Source: an uncultured Gammaproteobacteria bacterium
GTDB lineage: Bacteria > Patescibacteriota > Patescibacteriia > JAHIZJ01
Direction: 5' to 3'
Assembly: GCA_964594455.1 (NCBI GenBank)
Contig: CAZQLY010000006.1
Coordinates: forward strand, 8,629 to 72,628
DNA length: 64,000 nucleotides
Part shown: in pieces, positions 1-61,543 of the stretch
Numbering within the stretch: the stretch's first letter is position 1
Layout: each line of letters starts with the position of its first letter
Made by a program: the position numbers and the translations under genes
The notes under the pieces: model-generated
What the model was told of the DNA's origin: nothing
Seen by the model: the letters and a program-made list of their open reading frames with translations, nothing else
Databases searched by the model: none

Positions 1-248
1 GCGAACGCGGTGGCTGTCTGAGTTCAAGATCAGCACAGAAGATATTTGATCGCGCATTGCATAAGGCGGGTATCAGCAAGAAGGCGACTTTTCACAGCTT
101 GAGACACAGCTTTGCCACTCATCTGCTGGAAAACGGCGTTGATATACGCTATGTTCAGGAATTGCTGGGTCATAACAGTATTAGAACCACGCAGATGTAC
201 ACGCGGATAACGAATCCAGGATTGAAAAGTATAACAAGCCCGCTTTAA
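1..248 (+). CDS. Tyrosine recombinase / phage-integrase family, C-terminal fragment (5' end lies outside the window)
   Basis: Frame open to the window edge. C-terminal catalytic motif [37 protein letters not shown] carries the conserved R, H-x-x-R and terminal Tyr typical of XerC/XerD/integrase family. Confidence 0.75.
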
Positions 249-259
249 TAAATTGAGCT

Positions 260-289
260 TTGACAGATATTCAGAAAACATGATAGTGT
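260..289 (+). promoter_or_regulatory. Possible sigma70-like promoter (TTGACA, 18-nt spacer, TAGTGT) upstream of the GC-rich ORF
   Basis: TTGACA at 260-265 followed by a weak -10. Sequence inspection only. Confidence 0.2.
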
Positions 290-340
290 GTTTGTGTGTT
301 TTATGACTAGTGGTCAGTTCTTTCTCTAAGGAGGTGCGAA

Positions 341-586
341 TTGGGCTCAAAGATGAGGGTTCAAACGCCGGGTCAGGCCAAAAGCCGGGCCAGGAAGCTG
401 GCTTGCCGACGCCAGAAGCAGGCGCGTTATCAGGAGGAAGCACGCCGTCGCGGGATTCCTGTGGGACAAGTTCCCTTCGTTCTCTTCCAAGAGATGCAGG
501 AAGGCCAGAGGCAGAGAGCGGCTGAAGTTCAGCGCAGGCTCGAAGAGATGTCGCGGCGCAGAAGGAGTCCTTGGGACCCGTGGTAG
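341..586 (+). CDS. Hypothetical small Arg/Glu/Gln-rich basic protein (81 aa) in a GC-rich island, TTG start
   Basis: GC-rich segment (about 300-600) in an AT-rich genome. Perfect SD AAGGAGG at 328-334, 6 nt before TTG at 341 (ATG at 353 is an alternative). Hairpin terminator immediately downstream. Other frames in this GC-rich patch are also open, so the frame choice rests on the SD. Confidence 0.45.
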   Translation: MGSKMRVQTPGQAKSRARKLACRRQKQARYQEEARRRGIPVGQVPFVLFQEMQEGQRQRAAEVQRRLEEMSRRRRSPWDPW

Positions 587-599
587 AATGTGGTCACAT

Positions 600-627
600 G
601 TCACCCAGAATTAGGGTGACTTTTTTT
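600..627 (+). terminator. Rho-independent terminator (GTCACCC-loop-GGGTGAC plus T7)
   Basis: Perfect 7-bp inverted repeat at 600-620 followed by TTTTTTT at 621-627. Confidence 0.6.
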
Positions 628-654
628 ATAAAACAAAACAGGGTATTCACCCTG
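628..654 (-). terminator. Rho-independent terminator for the convergent GalT-like gene (CAGGGT-ATTC-ACCCTG)
   Basis: 6-bp stem at 639-654. The minus-strand T-run is the complement of AAAACAAAACA at 628-638. Confidence 0.45.
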
Positions 655-675
655 CTTTGTTGTTTATGTGTTGTT

Positions 676-4102: not shown

Positions 4103-5501
4103 GCTTTTTGGTGAGCAGATGCTTCTTTTCTTGCAATTCAGTAACACGATCACGAATCTGAGCTGCTCGCTCATATTCTTTGTTCCTGGCTGCTTCCAGC
4201 ATCTGGCGATTTAAATTGTTAACTATCGAATTAAATTCCTTGACAGGAATGTAGGGCATTTCAACCGTAATTCTTTGAGTAACATCTTCATCGGCCAACT
4301 TGGCTAGACTTTCTACTTTGCCAGTTCTCTGCCACTCAAAAGCGGAGAAAATAATTGATTGATATAACTGCTGGGCTTTTTGATAGGTTGATTTAGGAAG
4401 GTTTGGTACCATCAGGATCACGTCTCTCAATTCTTTGGCTCCAGCTTCAATCATTTCAATGCTCCACCAAGGCATAGCAGAGGCCCACCAGTATTGATCA
4501 CTATGCAATGAACGATCTAAGGCTTTTCTAATAGACGGATATTTCTTAGACTTGGGGTTCAGATTGTTGACTGATTTAATAGCCATATTAGTCAGTTGCC
4601 ACTGGGCTTGGTGTATTTCATTATTCTTGTCGTTCCAGCGTGAAAAAGGAGTGTTTTGTTCGATGTCGCGCTGCATTAGAGCCCAGCTGGAGGAATGAGG
4701 GACTATCCCTTCTCGTTTTGTGAACACATCATTTAATTCCGACAAAGTGACGCTTTTTATTTGAGGAACTTTATATAAGTCAAAAAGCAGCTGCTCTAAT
4801 CCCGGGCGATGATGTCCAAAAGTCTCTCCATCCATGGCAGTCACGAGAAAATTCTTTTGTTGGAGACGCTTGCCGAGCAAATTAACTAACATTTTACTTG
4901 AAAAAACGCTCACGCCAACCTGAGCGGATAATATTCTGAAACTGACATCACGTTCACGGAAAAAGAAGGACAACTTTTCATCTCCCTTAAGATGGTAAAT
5001 TGTGTCGTGGCTAATGTTTTTATGATCGGGGTGAGCCAACTCATCCATAATAATCCAACGGTAGCCCAGCTTTTGAGCGACCTTGGCTATCTTGGGGGCA
5101 TATCCCATTTCGGTGGGGAAAAGACCGGTCGGATTATAGGATTTTCCAAAATATTTTTTGTTGGTCGCGTGATTGAGTTTAATCTGACGGATGATTTCTG
5201 ATTCTGGTAACAGGGGCAAAAAAGGATGGTATTTTGCCGTGTCAGTGAATTCTATTTGACCGCGATCAGCCAATTTTTTAATATCCCGCACAACATCCAG
5301 ACAACCGTCACGCTTAAAAAGCTCAACTAAAACAGCGTTTATGTTTAAAGTAAGACGGGCCTTGGGGTTTTTCAATAATCCAGCTACGATCTTGCGGTAG
5401 CTTTCATTTGCGATTTTCTTTACCCAATAACTCTTTTGAGTAGGTGGTTGATAAAAATGTAGAAAGTTTGCCCAATACATAAGGTAATTATAGATTAACA
5501 A
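4071..5501 (-). CDS. GH57 family glycoside hydrolase (alpha-amylase / branching-enzyme family) with a C-terminal UVR-like motif
   Basis: N-terminal WANFLHFYQPP GH57 signature. C-terminus EYERAAQIRDRVTELQEKK resembles the UvrB/UvrC UVR helical hairpin and is followed by a Lys/Arg-rich tail. Confidence 0.75.
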   Translation of the reverse strand: MLIYNYLMYWANFLHFYQPPTQKSYWVKKIANESYRKIVAGLLKNPKARLTLNINAVLVELFKRDGCLDVVRDIKKLADRGQIEFTDTAKYHPFLPLLPESEIIRQIKLNHATNKKYFGKSYNPTGLFPTEMGYAPKIAKVAQKLGYRWIIMDELAHPDHKNISHDTIYHLKGDEKLSFFFRERDVSFRILSAQVGVSVFSSKMLVNLLGKRLQQKNFLVTAMDGETFGHHRPGLEQLLFDLYKVPQIKSVTLSELNDVFTKREGIVPHSSSWALMQRDIEQNTPFSRWNDKNNEIHQAQWQLTNMAIKSVNNLNPKSKKYPSIRKALDRSLHSDQYWWASAMPWWSIEMIEAGAKELRDVILMVPNLPKSTYQKAQQLYQSIIFSAFEWQRTGKVESLAKLADEDVTQRITVEMPYIPVKEFNSIVNNLNRQMLEAARNKEYERAAQIRDRVTELQEKKHLLTKKHGSRRKKKAA

Positions 5502-5519: not shown

Positions 5520-6752
5520 TTATTTTACTTTCTCACCGCCAAAAAATCGAGTAAAGGCCTCATTGCCTAAATACTGACGACGTATTTCATCGGCTTTACC
5601 TGTTTCCTGCCAGCGATTTGTCAGATTGACAATATCATCATACAGGCCGGAAGCCTGCTTCATAAACGTTGGCTCGGCTTCAAAAGCCCGGAATACTCTC
5701 AGTGTTTTATGTGCTGCTAAGGCGACAATGCGGGTATCCCACCAAGGCGAAGCTGCCGCCCACCAGTATTGATCTGAGGCCAGAGCCTTATCCAGTAAGT
5801 TTCGAGCGTGCTGGTATCCAGGGTTGTTTGAGGATAACTCTTTTATGCTTTTTATGGCTAGGTTGGTCAGCTGCCATTGTTTTTGGTGGATCTCGTTCTC
5901 TTTGTTTTTCCAGAGAAAATAAGGTTCCTGGTCTTTTAATTCCGATTCACGTGAGGCCCAGCTAGCCGGCCGAGGCTTAACAGTCTCATATTTCGAGTAT
6001 TGTTTCAAGAGCTGACTCAGGGTCAAAGATTGTACATTTTTTGAGCCAATCAAACGAAACCAAATGGGTAATAATTTTGGGTTATGGTGTCCAAGATTTT
6101 CACCGTCAAAAGCCGTAATAAGATACTTAGTTACCCGATCGCTCTTTTCAACCGCGTCCATGAATGTCTTGGGGGTTTTCAGTATATCCATAAAAAACAA
6201 ATCGCTGATTAATCGATTACGAAATACCACCTTCAAATCATCAGTACCTATTTGATATCCGTGGTTAAATGAAATTTTTCCGACTGTACCTTTGGCTGAT
6301 ATTTCATCCAGAACCACCCACCGGTAACCCAAATCTTTAATTATTTGGGCCACGGAATCGCTGTAGCACATTTCAGGAATAAAGAAGCCTTTAGGACGAT
6401 AGACAGAACCAAAAAATTTTCTGTTACAATCATAGTTTAACTGTATTTGCCTTTCGACCTCAGAAGAGTCGACCAAAGCTAAAATGGGATGATATTTAGC
6501 CGATCCGGTAAATTCAATTTGTCCGTTTCCAGCCAATTCCTTTATTGATTCCAGAACCTCAGTATGGCCGTATTGGTATAGTTGCTCGGTAAGCGAACCG
6601 CAAACGTTTAAAGTAATCTTGAATTCAGGGTATTTTTTCAGAGTTTGAAAAAAAGGCGCGTATGATTCCTGAACTACTTTTGCGATGATAGTTTTATCCC
6701 AATCTGGAGGCTGGTAGATGTGAAAAAGGTTCGCCCAGTAAAATTGTTTCAT
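5520..6752 (-). CDS. GH57 family glycoside hydrolase, paralog of the upstream gene
   Basis: N-terminal WANLFHIYQPP. Collinear similarity to the 4071-5501 product (QIEFTxxAKYHP, LGYRW). Confidence 0.75.
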   Translation of the reverse strand: MKQFYWANLFHIYQPPDWDKTIIAKVVQESYAPFFQTLKKYPEFKITLNVCGSLTEQLYQYGHTEVLESIKELAGNGQIEFTGSAKYHPILALVDSSEVERQIQLNYDCNRKFFGSVYRPKGFFIPEMCYSDSVAQIIKDLGYRWVVLDEISAKGTVGKISFNHGYQIGTDDLKVVFRNRLISDLFFMDILKTPKTFMDAVEKSDRVTKYLITAFDGENLGHHNPKLLPIWFRLIGSKNVQSLTLSQLLKQYSKYETVKPRPASWASRESELKDQEPYFLWKNKENEIHQKQWQLTNLAIKSIKELSSNNPGYQHARNLLDKALASDQYWWAAASPWWDTRIVALAAHKTLRVFRAFEAEPTFMKQASGLYDDIVNLTNRWQETGKADEIRRQYLGNEAFTRFFGGEKVK

Positions 6753-6756
6753 TTGA

Positions 6757-8235
6757 TTAAGACTTTTTACCCTCTGAATAACGTAGAGCTAAGCGGTATA
6801 GTTTAACATATTTTTTAGCGGGAATTTCCCAGGAATAACTTTTGTGCATACCAACAACGACTAGATCGTGCCAGCTATCATCATATTTGTAAGTTTCCAA
6901 AGCTCGGGTTATAGCAATTAACAAGTCTCGCGAATCGTATCGTTTAAAGACAAAGCCGTTACCTTTCTTAGTTTTGGGGTTATAGTCAGTTACTGTGTCG
7001 ACCAGTCCCCCAACAGCGCTGACTATTGGTACAGAACCATAACGTAGGCTGATCAGCTGCCCCAAACCGCAAGGTTCAAAGCGCGAAGGCATGAGAAACA
7101 TATCTGAGCCGGCATATATTTGACTGGCCTTCTTGGTGTCAAATATCAGATGACTGCCAACTTTCTTGGAATATTTTTTAGTAATTTTCCTGAAATATTT
7201 TTCATACCTTTTTTCGCCACCACCAACCAGTACCAACTGAAGGTCTTGACGCATTAAGGGTTCGATAATTTCCATTATTAGATCAAAGCCTTTTTGTTCG
7301 GTAATTCTCGAGACCATTCCGATTAAAGGCACGCCGGGCGTTTCCGGTAGGTTAAATTCTTTTTGCAGAAAATGCTTGTTCTTTTCTTTTTTATGTAGCG
7401 AATTAAAATCGTAGTTTTTATGCAAACCGGGATCAGTAGCCGGGTTGAAGTCGAAATAATCAATCCCGTTGATTATTCCAAATAAGCGATCTTTGCGATT
7501 CAAGAGAATGCGATGTAAATCCTGCCCGAATTCCTTGGTTATTATTTCTTGAGCGTACTGTTCTGAAACAGTGTTGATCACATCAGCATAGAGTATGGCT
7601 CGTTTGGCAAAGTTTATGCAGCTGATTGCTTCTTTGTCAGAAAAGAGGGGTAGGCGTGAGTGACCGTAATCCTTCTTTTCAGGAGGGACGGTCCACCAAT
7701 CTTGTCCCATTTGAAAAGCCAAATTATGTATGGTAAAAAGAGTAGCCGTGTCCTTGAAAAATGAATTATTGCGGAAACGCTTCTTCAAGAAATAAGGGAT
7801 TAAACCAGTATGCCATTCATGGCAGTGTACTATATCTGGCTTGAAGTTCATTAGGGTAAGGAGTTTCAAAGCCGCCAAGGAAAAAAATAAAAACCTTCGG
7901 TTGTCATCCTGGGATCCATAGATAAACTTGTATTTACCGAAATGATGGTAATGTTCCACAAAGAACACCGGCAAGCCAGGCATCAACTCGCCCTGCCAGA
8001 AGTTAGCGTGCCGAACGTTTTTATCATCTATCTTGATAGGAATGTTCTCAGCGTATTTTTTTAAGTTATATTTTTTTACATCAATAACTCCATGTAGGGG
8101 CATGATGGCCACTACTTCATGATTTAGCCGATGCAAAGCTTTGGGCAGTGATCGAGCGACATCTGCTTGGCCGCCCGCTTTGGCAAACGGAGCGATTTCA
8201 GCGGAGATAGACGCTATTTTTAATTGCTTGGGCAT
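6757..8235 (-). CDS. glgA: Glycogen-synthase-like GT5 glycosyltransferase (second GlgA paralog)
   Basis: AKAGGQADVARSLPKAL N-terminal motif. C-terminal block AGSDMFLMPSRFEPCGLGQLISLRYG identical to the first GlgA. Confidence 0.8.
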   Translation of the reverse strand: MPKQLKIASISAEIAPFAKAGGQADVARSLPKALHRLNHEVVAIMPLHGVIDVKKYNLKKYAENIPIKIDDKNVRHANFWQGELMPGLPVFFVEHYHHFGKYKFIYGSQDDNRRFLFFSLAALKLLTLMNFKPDIVHCHEWHTGLIPYFLKKRFRNNSFFKDTATLFTIHNLAFQMGQDWWTVPPEKKDYGHSRLPLFSDKEAISCINFAKRAILYADVINTVSEQYAQEIITKEFGQDLHRILLNRKDRLFGIINGIDYFDFNPATDPGLHKNYDFNSLHKKEKNKHFLQKEFNLPETPGVPLIGMVSRITEQKGFDLIMEIIEPLMRQDLQLVLVGGGEKRYEKYFRKITKKYSKKVGSHLIFDTKKASQIYAGSDMFLMPSRFEPCGLGQLISLRYGSVPIVSAVGGLVDTVTDYNPKTKKGNGFVFKRYDSRDLLIAITRALETYKYDDSWHDLVVVGMHKSYSWEIPAKKYVKLYRLALRYSEGKKS

Positions 8236-8249
8236 AGTATTTTATCAGT

Positions 8250-8753
8250 CTAGCTATTAGACTTTGAGTTTTTATTTTTTTGAATATTTAAATATTGTCC
8301 AGCACAGAAAGCACAAGCAACTGCGTCAGCCACATCGTCAGGTTTGGGTGCTGAGCGAAGCTTAAATATCGGCAAAATCATTTTTTGGACCTGCTCTTTT
8401 GTAGCCTGCCCGTATCCGGTTATGGATTGTTTAATCTGCAAAGGAGTTAATTCTATGATTGGCAGATTCATAGTGGCAACTGTGAAGGTAATTACCCCCC
8501 AGGCTTGCCCGACACTGAAAGCGGTTTTAGCATTTTTAAAGAAAAATAGTTTTTCTATGCCAACATAATCAAGTTGATGTTTTTTAAGAACTTTTTTTAT
8601 ATCTTTGTTTATTGATTGTAGCCTCTGAGGCAGCTCTTGGTCAGAGGGTGTGGTAATTAGCCCGGCTTCTATTATGGAATATTTATTCTTTTGATTTTCT
8701 ATGACCCCGTACCCGATTCTGGCTAAGCCGGGATCAATGCCGAGTATTTTCAT
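8250..8753 (-). CDS. ruvC: Holliday junction resolvase RuvC
   Basis: MKILGIDPGLARIGYGVIE N-terminus, 167 aa. Confidence 0.9.
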   Translation of the reverse strand: MKILGIDPGLARIGYGVIENQKNKYSIIEAGLITTPSDQELPQRLQSINKDIKKVLKKHQLDYVGIEKLFFFKNAKTAFSVGQAWGVITFTVATMNLPIIELTPLQIKQSITGYGQATKEQVQKMILPIFKLRSAPKPDDVADAVACAFCAGQYLNIQKNKNSKSNS

Positions 8754-20674: not shown

Positions 20675-21298
20675 ATGAGTAGGAAGATTGACGTTGATCT
20701 GCGGGACGGTCTGGCTATCTACAGCCGCTTTGGTCAGGTTATCAGAGCGTTGGTGGACGGTCTCAAGAAGCGCGGCGGTACTCTCGACGATCTCTGGAAG
20801 GTTTTCAGGTCACAGGAAGCCCTGAACCAGATTCTGGACATTCTCAGATCGGTTGACATCAACCTGATCTCTCTGCGCATCAACTGGTCGGACGAGCCCT
20901 GGAATATCGTCACGCGGAGCGTGCTGAACAACGCGGTGGCCGGCAACTTCGTTAATATCCCGGATGGCGAGTATCTAGAAGGTGTATCGGAACATCGGTA
21001 TATGCTGGTCGATCCACCGAAGCACCCGTTGCCGTTATCCGATCTCATTGATTGGTGTCAAATGAACAGTTATGTTCCGGCTACAGCGCTGGAGCTGTTC
21101 AATCTCGTTCTCCAGAATGAGACTATTGAAGAACGTTTTCGTGGCTGGAAGATCCTGGCGATTGTTGCCCATGGGACCGGCACAGATTACTACGGCAAGT
21201 GTCCCTATGTCTGCTTTGGCGATCGCTGGACCGTCGGTTATCATGATACCACGGCCAGGTCGACAACCCCGCCCAAGATCCTAGTTCGAGTCTCCTAG
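20675..21298 (+). CDS. Hypothetical protein (207 aa) in a GC-rich island, no recognisable domain
   Basis: GC about 55-58 % against an about 40 % background. SD GAGGAGG 10 nt upstream of ATG. Hairpin terminator downstream. Several shadow ORFs overlap. Confidence 0.55.
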   Translation: MSRKIDVDLRDGLAIYSRFGQVIRALVDGLKKRGGTLDDLWKVFRSQEALNQILDILRSVDINLISLRINWSDEPWNIVTRSVLNNAVAGNFVNIPDGEYLEGVSEHRYMLVDPPKHPLPLSDLIDWCQMNSYVPATALELFNLVLQNETIEERFRGWKILAIVAHGTGTDYYGKCPYVCFGDRWTVGYHDTTARSTTPPKILVRVS

Positions 21299-58888: not shown

Positions 58889-59140
58889 ATGAAGCTTCAA
58901 TTGGGGCAAGTTGTGAATTTGTACAAGCTAAAGAAGCCGGGCTCAAATGAGATGGATATGTTTCCGCTTTCCCCGGGCATCCATGAGTTTGAGGAGGTAC
59001 CCAATCCGAGTGGGGGAACTGGTGGGATGCCCTGGCTGGTCCTAAAATCGGATCAGCTGTGCGGGATGGCCAAGGTGGCCCTTCTCAACAAGCCGGGCGT
59101 GACCGAGATTCAGGAGGAGGCACCGGCTGAGGGGAAGTAG
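58889..59140 (+). CDS. Hypothetical protein (83 aa) in a GC-rich island
   Basis: SD GAGGGAGG 6 nt before ATG. GC-rich. Terminator immediately after. Confidence 0.5.
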   Translation: MKLQLGQVVNLYKLKKPGSNEMDMFPLSPGIHEFEEVPNPSGGTGGMPWLVLKSDQLCGMAKVALLNKPGVTEIQEEAPAEGK

Positions 59141-61027: not shown

Positions 61028-61543
61028 CTAGCAGCGCATGACGGTCCGGAGTACCCGGGTGACCTCGGCGACATCGTTGGCCGTCCTCGCGCTCGACTGG
61101 GCCGCATTGTTGACCGTGCAGCAATCGCGCGCATTCACCTGGATCCTTCCCGAGTTGTTGGCGACATCGTAGTTCTTGGCGATGAGGGCCGCGCTATTGA
61201 CCGCGTCGTCGATGTAGCAGCCGGAGCGCGCGTTCGCCTCGATCTTGACTTGGTGAACCGCGCACATGGTCTCGTGGGCGCAGGTCCGTCCGCTGATTTC
61301 TTCGTAATTGAGATTCTCGATCCTCGTCTGGGCCGCGTCGAAACGGAAATCGGCCGCCATGATCGGGCTGGCCTTGTTGGCGATCGCCTCGACGTTGCTG
61401 TTCTCCACGACTTGCTCGTTCAGCATCGCGATCTGCGGGGTCGTGGCGAGCTCCGCCTTCTCGACCGCCATCGCGCTTCCGGAAATGAACAGGATCGCCA
61501 GAACGGCGATCAGTGGAACAAGGGGCCAGAGTCTTCTCATCAT
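61028..61543 (-). CDS. Hypothetical secreted Cys-containing protein (171 aa) in a very GC-rich island
   Basis: GC about 62-65 %. Perfect SD AAGGAGG 4-7 nt before ATGATG. Signal peptide MMRRLWPLVPLIAVLAILFISGSAMA/VEK. Six Cys. Own terminator. The two plus-strand ORFs and one minus-strand ORF overlapping this island are taken as shadows. Confidence 0.6.
   Translation of the reverse strand: MMRRLWPLVPLIAVLAILFISGSAMAVEKAELATTPQIAMLNEQVVENSNVEAIANKASPIMAADFRFDAAQTRIENLNYEEISGRTCAHETMCAVHQVKIEANARSGCYIDDAVNSAALIAKNYDVANNSGRIQVNARDCCTVNNAAQSSARTANDVAEVTRVLRTVMRC

Follow-up and report, generated by a model that had tools for sequence, protein, structure and literature searches.

A tyrosine recombinase of a probable integron-like platform next to a GC-rich small gene of a rare family in Patescibacteria

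The left edge of the window

We analysed 64,000 nucleotides (nt) of a contig from an uncultured bacterium assigned by GTDB to the Patescibacteriota (assembly GCA_964594455.1, contig CAZQLY010000006.1, forward-strand positions 8,629 to 72,628). This whole stretch is called the window and its positions are used below. At its left edge lie the 3′ end of a tyrosine recombinase gene, a small GC-rich open reading frame (ORF) and a convergent galT-like gene, and the relation between the first two is the subject of this report. The recombinase gene occupies positions 1–248 of the plus strand with its last 81 codons and a TAA stop (246–248). Translation in frame 3 (3–245) gives 81 amino acids (aa) beginning ERGGCLSS, which match PF00589 (E = 1.6e-23) and carry the catalytic motifs HSLRH (HxxR), LGH (H) and MYT (Y). 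This C-terminus is identical to that of P0005, an intact 272-aa protein encoded on the same 96,186-bp NCBI contig as P0001, the product of the small ORF. Therefore, the recombinase gene is cut by the window edge only, and its start lies about 570 nt left of the window. P0005 also carries GLRVSE and KGRKDR at full length, giving the R-K-H-R-H/W-Y catalytic set. As far as its sequence can tell, the intact recombinase is probably active.

On the same strand follow a putative sigma-70-like promoter (260–287; TTGACA-16-GATAGT, 10 of 12 matches), a Shine-Dalgarno (SD) sequence AAGGAGG (328–334) and, 6 nt further on, the TTG start of an 81-codon gene (341–586) that ends with a TAG stop (584–586). Its intrinsic terminator (600–627) consists of the hairpin GTCACCC-AGAATTA-GGGTGAC (600–620) and the run TTTTTTT. 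The next feature belongs to the minus strand: an extended terminator hairpin (628–679) with the core CAGGGT-ATTC-ACCCTG (639–654), followed on that strand by TTTTGTTTTAT, in which 628–640 pairs with 667–679 (inverted repeat I1). It terminates a gene for a 309-aa GalT/HIT-family nucleotidyltransferase-like protein (676–1605, stop at 676–678), convergent with the recombinase gene, with the Pfam domains GalP_UDP_transf (1.8e-15), DUF4931_N and HIT. Most genes of the window are on the minus strand.

Positions 335–600 have a GC content of 59.8% and the small ORF one of 61%, compared with 42.7% for the window, and the patch is the second to third highest GC peak of 250–300 nt in the 64 kb (z = 3.6–3.9). 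Taken singly, its signals are at background. AAGGAGG occurs seven times in the window (8.3 expected), promoter-like hexamer pairs occur twice (2.9 expected), and three further long ORFs overlap the patch (four in all), as expected in GC-rich DNA, so that ORF length alone is no proof of a gene. What stands above chance is the combination of the signals together with their conservation, and no single feature. Across the 64 kb, Rfam and ARAGORN found no transfer RNA (tRNA), transfer-messenger RNA (tmRNA), ribosomal RNA or any other Rfam family; Rfam gave no match at the gathering threshold and chance-level matches only at E ≤ 10.

The recombinase, the GC-rich patch with its AAGGAGG, 81-codon ORF and hairpin terminator, and the galT terminator had all been recognised in an earlier reading of the letters alone (hereafter the original prediction) and were recovered where that reading had placed them; the GC peak it expected was also confirmed. 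Of the att-like direct repeats that it suggested looking for, none was found around the patch: no meaningful direct repeats surround 249–675, and the repeat search returned terminator hairpins only.

The small gene and its family

A word-indexed protein search with the small ORF returned only the protein itself, P0001. An exhaustive HMMER search retrieved six relatives (E from 9e-11 to 3e-6), and a profile search extended the family to eight members. The search space, in which 7–8 members were found, held 1.84 billion cluster representatives and 5.8 billion clusters. The small gene thus belongs to a new, very rare protein family, which among the members found is confined to AT-rich contigs of Patescibacteria type. 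Its proteins have 81–97 aa and share TPGQAKSRARK...EAxRRGIxVHQVPxxL and a C-terminal Trp or Tyr. The proposed frame is the sole one open in all five homologous loci for which DNA is available, and third codon positions are the most divergent in 10 of 10 pairs (0.54–0.81, compared with 0.24–0.55 at first and second positions). This amino acid conservation, together with the single common open frame, indicates a real protein gene.

The signals around the gene recur with it. A −35-like TTGAC box lies about 75 nt upstream in the homologous loci, at the same relative position in L021, L023 and L025. AGGAGG or GGAGG directly precedes the TTG or ATG start in all five loci, and a hairpin with a T-run follows every homologue with DNA. 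In the window (341) and in L021 (6001), the TTG start comes right after the strong SD, the start codon being weak and the ribosome-binding site strong. SD-linked TTG codons are also present in L023 (about 6052) and L022 (about 451), though the gene calls there start elsewhere.

The homologues occupy unrelated places. Those of L021, L023 and L024 lie after a block of genes for DnaG, RpoD, a 151-aa and a 550-aa protein and before a tRNA cluster, that of L025 is divergent from a hibernation-factor gene, and that of L022 follows another GC-rich ORF. No recombinase was found near any of them within the available sequence. Conversely, no homologue of the small gene was found in the approximately 87 integrase-bearing loci searched.

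High GC content accompanies the gene as well. The small genes have a GC content of 0.55–0.67, and their flanks one of 0.35–0.43 in three host backgrounds and about 0.50–0.54 in the two short contigs L025 and L022. GC content at third codon positions (GC3) is 0.66 in the window gene. In L021 and L023, where the gene sits at the same chromosomal position, its GC3 is 0.59–0.67, whereas the neighbouring genes have a GC3 of 0.27–0.35 and differ at 39–45% of third positions. Because GC content, SD, promoter and terminator recur at unrelated loci, we regard them as traits of the gene family and not of the location.

The ordinary genes of the window and of L023 have no SD. Three other GC-rich islets of the window, at 20675–21298 (+), 58889–59140 (+) and 61028–61543 (−), form GC peaks with z of 3–4.6. 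Each is a single orphan ORF, of 207, 83 and 171 aa respectively, led by a strong SD (GAGGAGG, GGGAGG and AAGGAGG) and closed by its own hairpin terminator. The N-terminus of the 171-aa ORF is hydrophobic and resembles a signal peptide. None of the three matched Pfam and none adjoins a recombinase.

The family proteins are very basic, with an isoelectric point of 10.6–11.7 and a net charge of +12 to +15 (11.7 and +13 for the window protein). AlphaFold2 predicted a hairpin of two helices in the window protein (10–37 and 41–74; mean predicted local distance difference test score 87) and no strand. No match was found in Pfam, NCBIfam or PHROGs, and no relative in phage and plasmid BLAST searches, IMG/VR or the JGI metagenomes. 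Against PDB sequences, MazE7 scored E = 0.095, which is not significant, and Foldseek returned nothing below E = 1 from PDB and BFVD, the top match being CopG at E of about 4. The protein resembles ribbon-helix-helix proteins such as CopG and MazE7 in being small and in its helix, G-x-S/P turn and helix (EARRRGIPVGQVPFVL). It differs from them in its two long helices, the lack of a predicted N-terminal beta-strand, of a significant profile match and of a partner toxin gene, and in a family charge far above what is usual for them. On the basis of its charge and predicted fold, the protein would most likely be a small regulator that binds nucleic acid, be it DNA, RNA or the ribosome.

The recombinase and the arrays beside its relatives

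P0005 belongs to a very large family of XerA/IntI-like proteins of about 270 aa. It scored 222.6 bits against the archaeal XerA model NF040815 (cutoff 220), for which the NCBI product name is “site-specific tyrosine recombinase/integron integrase”, and 217 bits against the integron-integrase model TIGR02249 (cutoff 265). Its closest solved structure is the Vibrio integron integrase IntI4/VchIntIA (2a3v; 5.9e-44), and archaeal XerA comes next. The alignment with 2a3v falls into two blocks, between which 71 IntI4 residues and 28 query residues are skipped.

The order of integrase, convergent galT and glgA is conserved in related Patescibacteria (loci L001, L006 and L008–L015), in which GalT is 81%, 73% and 71% identical to that of the window, respectively. 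In L002, where GalT is 73% identical, galT is present and the integrase is absent at that place. Despite the conserved flanking genes, the approximately 4 kb 5′ of the integrase show no homology between L006 and L008. In both, one repeat family occupies every intergenic gap of this region. The ORFs of these arrays are all transcribed away from the integrase, and each is followed by an imperfect palindrome of attC type. Read in the direction of the ORFs, one site runs ..GTTTAAC-AG-CGTCTATCCGCC...(variable)...GGCGCATGATACGC-AAAC-GTTGTAC... The sites are thus built from an xxxxAAC box, an L box paired with its partner apart from a single bulged base, a variable-length centre and a GTTxxxx box, with an overall length of 57–200 nt. 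In integrons, attC sites are bounded by R″ (RYYYAAC) and R′ (GTTRRRY). In an alignment of 14 sites of 61–113 nt, the two helices were paired in 81.7% of cells, compared with 23–38% when the 3′ partners were slid. Compensatory changes were present in 12 pairs, a number matched by 0 of 500 shuffles.

A covariance model of these sites (R1) was searched against 95 loci totalling 604 kb, including 80 from JGI metagenomes that were retrieved with P0005 and have integrases 36–69% identical to it. At E ≤ 0.01, 56 matches were found in the 192 kb 5′ of the integrases and none in the 260 kb on the 3′ side, and all of the matches but one (55/56) were on the strand opposite to the integrase. Upstream sequence of 1 kb or more was available for 44 loci, of which 26 had a match, and the association with arrays spans integrases of 52–64% identity. 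An attI-like site and an array in which attC-type sites separate the ORFs precede the integrase in the syntenic L006 and L008, and likewise in no fewer than 24 other loci. In 12 diverse loci, the attI-like region lies 100–135 nt upstream of the integrase start and contains two TTATGCGAA repeats. Its form is ...AAC|TCGTTATTATGCGAA...ATTATGCGAA, and it is conserved up to the junction ...AAC|TCGTT and variable past it, as one would expect of a border between attI and cassettes. The equivalent position in the window genome is about 700 nt left of the window.

A contig end lies at most 300 nt from the start of the integrase in 32 of 87 loci, as would be consistent with assemblies breaking in strain-variable arrays. 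Many members of the integrase family are known from contigs of 1–2 kb only. Within the window itself, no attC-type site was found with sequence motifs or R1 (with filters off, the best score was 10 bits, E = 0.14). Judging from the syntenic loci, the cassette array of the window genome would lie left of the window.

Two details of the arrays may be added. A Na+/Ca2+-exchanger gene (L006 1091–2020; L008 524–1453) is 86–91% identical between the two loci, compared with 61% for the integrase and 69% for GalT. Because attC-type matches are also present beyond this gene (L006 at 194 and 917; L008 at 321), it is probably a cassette shared within the arrays. At L006 2230–2680, a 133-aa ORF (2250–2651) is nested in a 22-nt inverted repeat (2230–2251/2659–2680) that extends an attC-like box. 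The structure may be an attC whose centre is as large as an ORF, or an attC that has received an insertion.

On the 3′ side, each relative has a different spacer between the stop codons of the integrase gene and galT. It measures 75 nt in L006. In L008 it holds a gene of about 120 aa on the galT strand, homologous to the gene after galT in L002 (10937–11308), and in L001, the closest relative, a 60-aa membrane-like ORF (4868–5050) and a GC-rich patch of about 100 nt (5065–5165), unrelated to that of the window and without similarity to any sequence retrieved for comparison. The window patch is therefore best regarded as an indel in a fast-changing spacer. Two further readings, the patch as a decayed copy of the 123-aa gene located after galT in L002 and L008 and the patch as a repeat of another region of the window, were rejected, since no similarity to either was found. 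No motif common to the spacers of the window, L001, L006 and L008 was seen by eye. In L008, a plus-strand gene call of 182 aa (6875–7423) overlaps galT and looks spurious, the minus strand coding for about 120 aa.

Interpretation and wider context

We consider it probable that the recombinase heads an integron-like platform located left of the window, and that the small gene is an independent, non-cassette gene of a tiny family. Two unrelated things would then abut: a recombinase with its platform, and a self-contained small-gene transcription unit at 260–627. If integrons are taken as the model, ORF-attC cassettes would be excised by the integrase and inserted at attI. The small gene would have been gained specifically in this lineage, within the rapidly changing spacer that separates the convergent integrase and galT genes; spacers of this kind tolerate insertions. 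The original prediction had read a recombinase next to a compositionally foreign cassette as the signature of a capturing element extending leftwards. As to the type of recombinase, this view is upheld by the arrays in relatives, and the leftward extension agrees with arrays 5′ of the integrase in L006, L008 and other loci, from which it is extrapolated to the window genome. The synteny comparison that it proposed showed the patch to be an indel relative to related genomes, the spacer differing in content in each of four relatives. The parts that did not survive are the ORF as cargo, since no attC accompanies it, and its foreign composition, since high GC content is common to all family members with DNA. 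The search proposed for the 81-aa product did reveal a small family through exhaustive HMMER, with no match in Pfam, NCBIfam or PHROGs. That reading had also named the same GC-rich ORF without an integrase nearby as an observation that would count against it, and, in spirit, this is what the homologous loci present.

If the ORF were cargo of an integrative or cassette-capturing element placed by the adjacent recombinase, one would understand why it adjoins a recombinase, why it is a compositional outlier, why the integrase-galT spacer differs in every relative and why a second, unrelated GC-rich patch occupies the same place in L001. We nevertheless find this explanation very doubtful. The ORF has neither attC-type sites nor flanking repeats, it lies on the 3′ side of the integrase, where none of the 56 model matches is found, and it has its own promoter-like site and terminator, unlike most integron cassettes. 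Its homologues have no recombinase nearby within the available sequence, and none of the approximately 87 integrase loci searched has a homologue. There is likewise no att repeat, tRNA, tmRNA, or phage or plasmid similarity that would mark an integrative element or prophage. A broader proposal, that the patch is foreign DNA recently acquired from a phage, plasmid or episymbiont host and owes its composition and SD to the donor, seems rather unlikely to us. It would fit the high GC3 (0.66) of the gene against a genomic GC content of 43%, its strong SD where the genome's own genes have none, the three further SD-led orphan islets and the GC-rich ORF that precedes the gene in L022. However, phage, plasmid, IMG/VR and JGI metagenome collections contain no relative, the members with DNA (the short GC-rich contig L022 excepted) sit between AT-rich flanks or ordinary bacterial genes, and L021 and L023 have kept the trait despite the third-position divergence of their neighbours. 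Finally, many GC-rich islands of AT-rich genomes turn out to be RNA genes and several frames are open in the patch, so that one could think of a structured non-coding RNA, or of a degenerate tRNA or tmRNA serving as an integration target, with the ORF as an artefact of GC-rich sequence. Having no Rfam or ARAGORN match, a fold energy equal to that of shuffled sequences (z = 0.02), the third-position excess in every pair and a single frame open in all homologues, the patch is extremely improbable as such an RNA.

That the recombinase is a housekeeping dimer resolvase of XerA type, with incidental repeat-separated genes and an unrelated orphan ORF, appears quite unlikely. Such a role would agree with its Xer-like length, the lack of the IntI insertion and the stable galT synteny in one clade, as well as with the behaviour of the profile models described below. 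Against it, arrays accompany the integrases systematically, on one side and in a strand-specific manner, conservation of the attI-like site ends sharply at its junction, contigs often break just upstream of the integrase gene, and the top structural relative is IntI and not Xer. No dif candidate was identified, although no systematic search for one was made.

Several points weigh against our preferred reading of a platform and an independent gene. All seven family proteins tested pass NF040815 (220–242 bits against 220) and fail TIGR02249 (210–226 bits against 265). The IntI-specific region of about 43 aa near patch III, described as defining for integron integrases and as required if they are to recombine attC (PMC9668308, PMC4889954), is missing from the recombinase. 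The passage concerned in PMC9668308 attributes the necessity to Messier and Roy (2001), and IntegronFinder requires this region (PMC4889954). Because it is absent, we refrain from classing the protein with canonical IntI and call the platform integron-like, with a compact integrase. The protein may have an Xer-type role, or another recombinase may act on the attC-type sites. The window genome itself may have lost its array and be in an In0-like state. With regard to the small gene, the patch at the same spot in L001 may leave room for a local mechanism that delivers GC-rich DNA, and the maintained GC content could reflect slow amelioration of old foreign DNA and not selection.

The inferred platform shares with sedentary chromosomal integrons, such as that of Vibrio cholerae, an integrase divergent from same-direction ORFs and a palindrome after each ORF. 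Further likenesses to integrons are the AAC...GTT ends, the L box with a bulged base and the variable centre of the sites in relatives, the direct-repeat site beside the integrase with its sharp GTT junction, and cassette contents that are wholly different between the close relatives L006 and L008. The recombinase finds its best structure match in IntI4, and both proteins end in ...SPL. Unlike IntI, however, it has about 270 aa without the additional region (PMC9668308, PMC4889954). The hosts differ as well: they are small-genome Patescibacteria, in which the platform is known here from the sequence of relatives, and very small genomes have been reported to lack complete integrons (PMC4889954). 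With XerA, XerC and XerD (Pyrococcus XerA 4a8e, Thermoplasma XerA 5hxy), the protein shares its length, the SAM-like N-domain with a catalytic domain, and the catalytic residues. The substrate of Xer proteins is one dif site of 28 bp, whereas this family is tied to arrays of long folded sites. In the pdif modules of Acinetobacter plasmids, gene modules are bounded by 28-bp XerC/XerD sites in alternating orientation. The arrays described here resemble them as gene modules separated by sites that can be attributed to an Xer-type recombinase, and differ in that the sites of relatives are 57–200 nt long, form covarying hairpins, have one orientation and are accompanied by a dedicated attI-like site next to the recombinase.

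A tentative extension of this comparison, to which we give somewhat less than an even chance, is that these loci represent an unrecognised integron class, widespread in Patescibacteria and other uncultured small-genome bacteria, in which a compact XerA-like integrase services attI and attC sites of canonical appearance. Thousands of proteins of about 270 aa, 60–70% identical, would fall into this class. If folded attC sites are recombined, the compact enzyme would represent a surviving intermediate between Xer and IntI, or else the product of secondary minimisation. The literature searched contained no description of integrons with compact integrases in Patescibacteria or the Candidate Phyla Radiation, which is not proof of novelty. 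The extra domain of IntI reads the extrahelical bases of folded attC, and genome surveys call integrons by that domain. Here, a large integrase family without the domain heads attC-type arrays in genomes of roughly 1 Mb. If this is confirmed, integrons would extend to the Candidate Phyla Radiation, some “integrase-less” attC clusters would be explained, and detection that requires intI_Cterm would score such platforms as attC clusters without an integrase. Confirmation would also make it possible to study by experiment how enzymes of Xer type acquired the ability to recombine folded single-stranded sites, and recombination of folded attC by the compact enzyme would contradict the indispensability of the additional domain.

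The small gene alone is of modest interest, and the recombinase, as part of a probable new integron variant, is the more interesting lead. The locus also illustrates that a recombinase beside a GC-rich ORF is insufficient to call a captured cassette, as composition, SD and terminator travel with the gene family. The small gene may belong to a set of self-contained mini-genes, rich in GC and led by an SD, that persist in AT-rich genomes without SD sequences. As a rare, very basic and often TTG-started family with a strong SD, it poses a question for gene expression in Patescibacteria.

GC-rich stretches 3′ of the integrase are present at several other loci, and they include tRNA genes, notably for tRNA-Ser, where scans found genes. 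The idea of a GC-rich element recurring at this position was rejected. The GC-rich stretch 3′ of the integrase in L080 is putative coding sequence. In many lineages, a convergent tRNA-Ser gene (anticodon cga, gga, gct or tga) lies 66–1000 nt 3′ of the integrase, as in L017 (5392–5480), L027 (3139–3227), L028 (1179–1267), L048 (897–988), L054 (9094–9183), L058 (2063–2156), L059 (6407–6494), L060 (1289–1376) and L090 (8162–8251). This suggests that the platform sits at tRNA-Ser genes, or once integrated beside them. In the clade of the window, galT takes the place of tRNA-Ser as the 3′ neighbour. At L016 5880–6656, the gene of an IS200/IS605-type Y1 transposase (6169–6543) lies directly 3′ of the integrase, between CCCCGCAAATTnAATTTGCGGGG palindromes.

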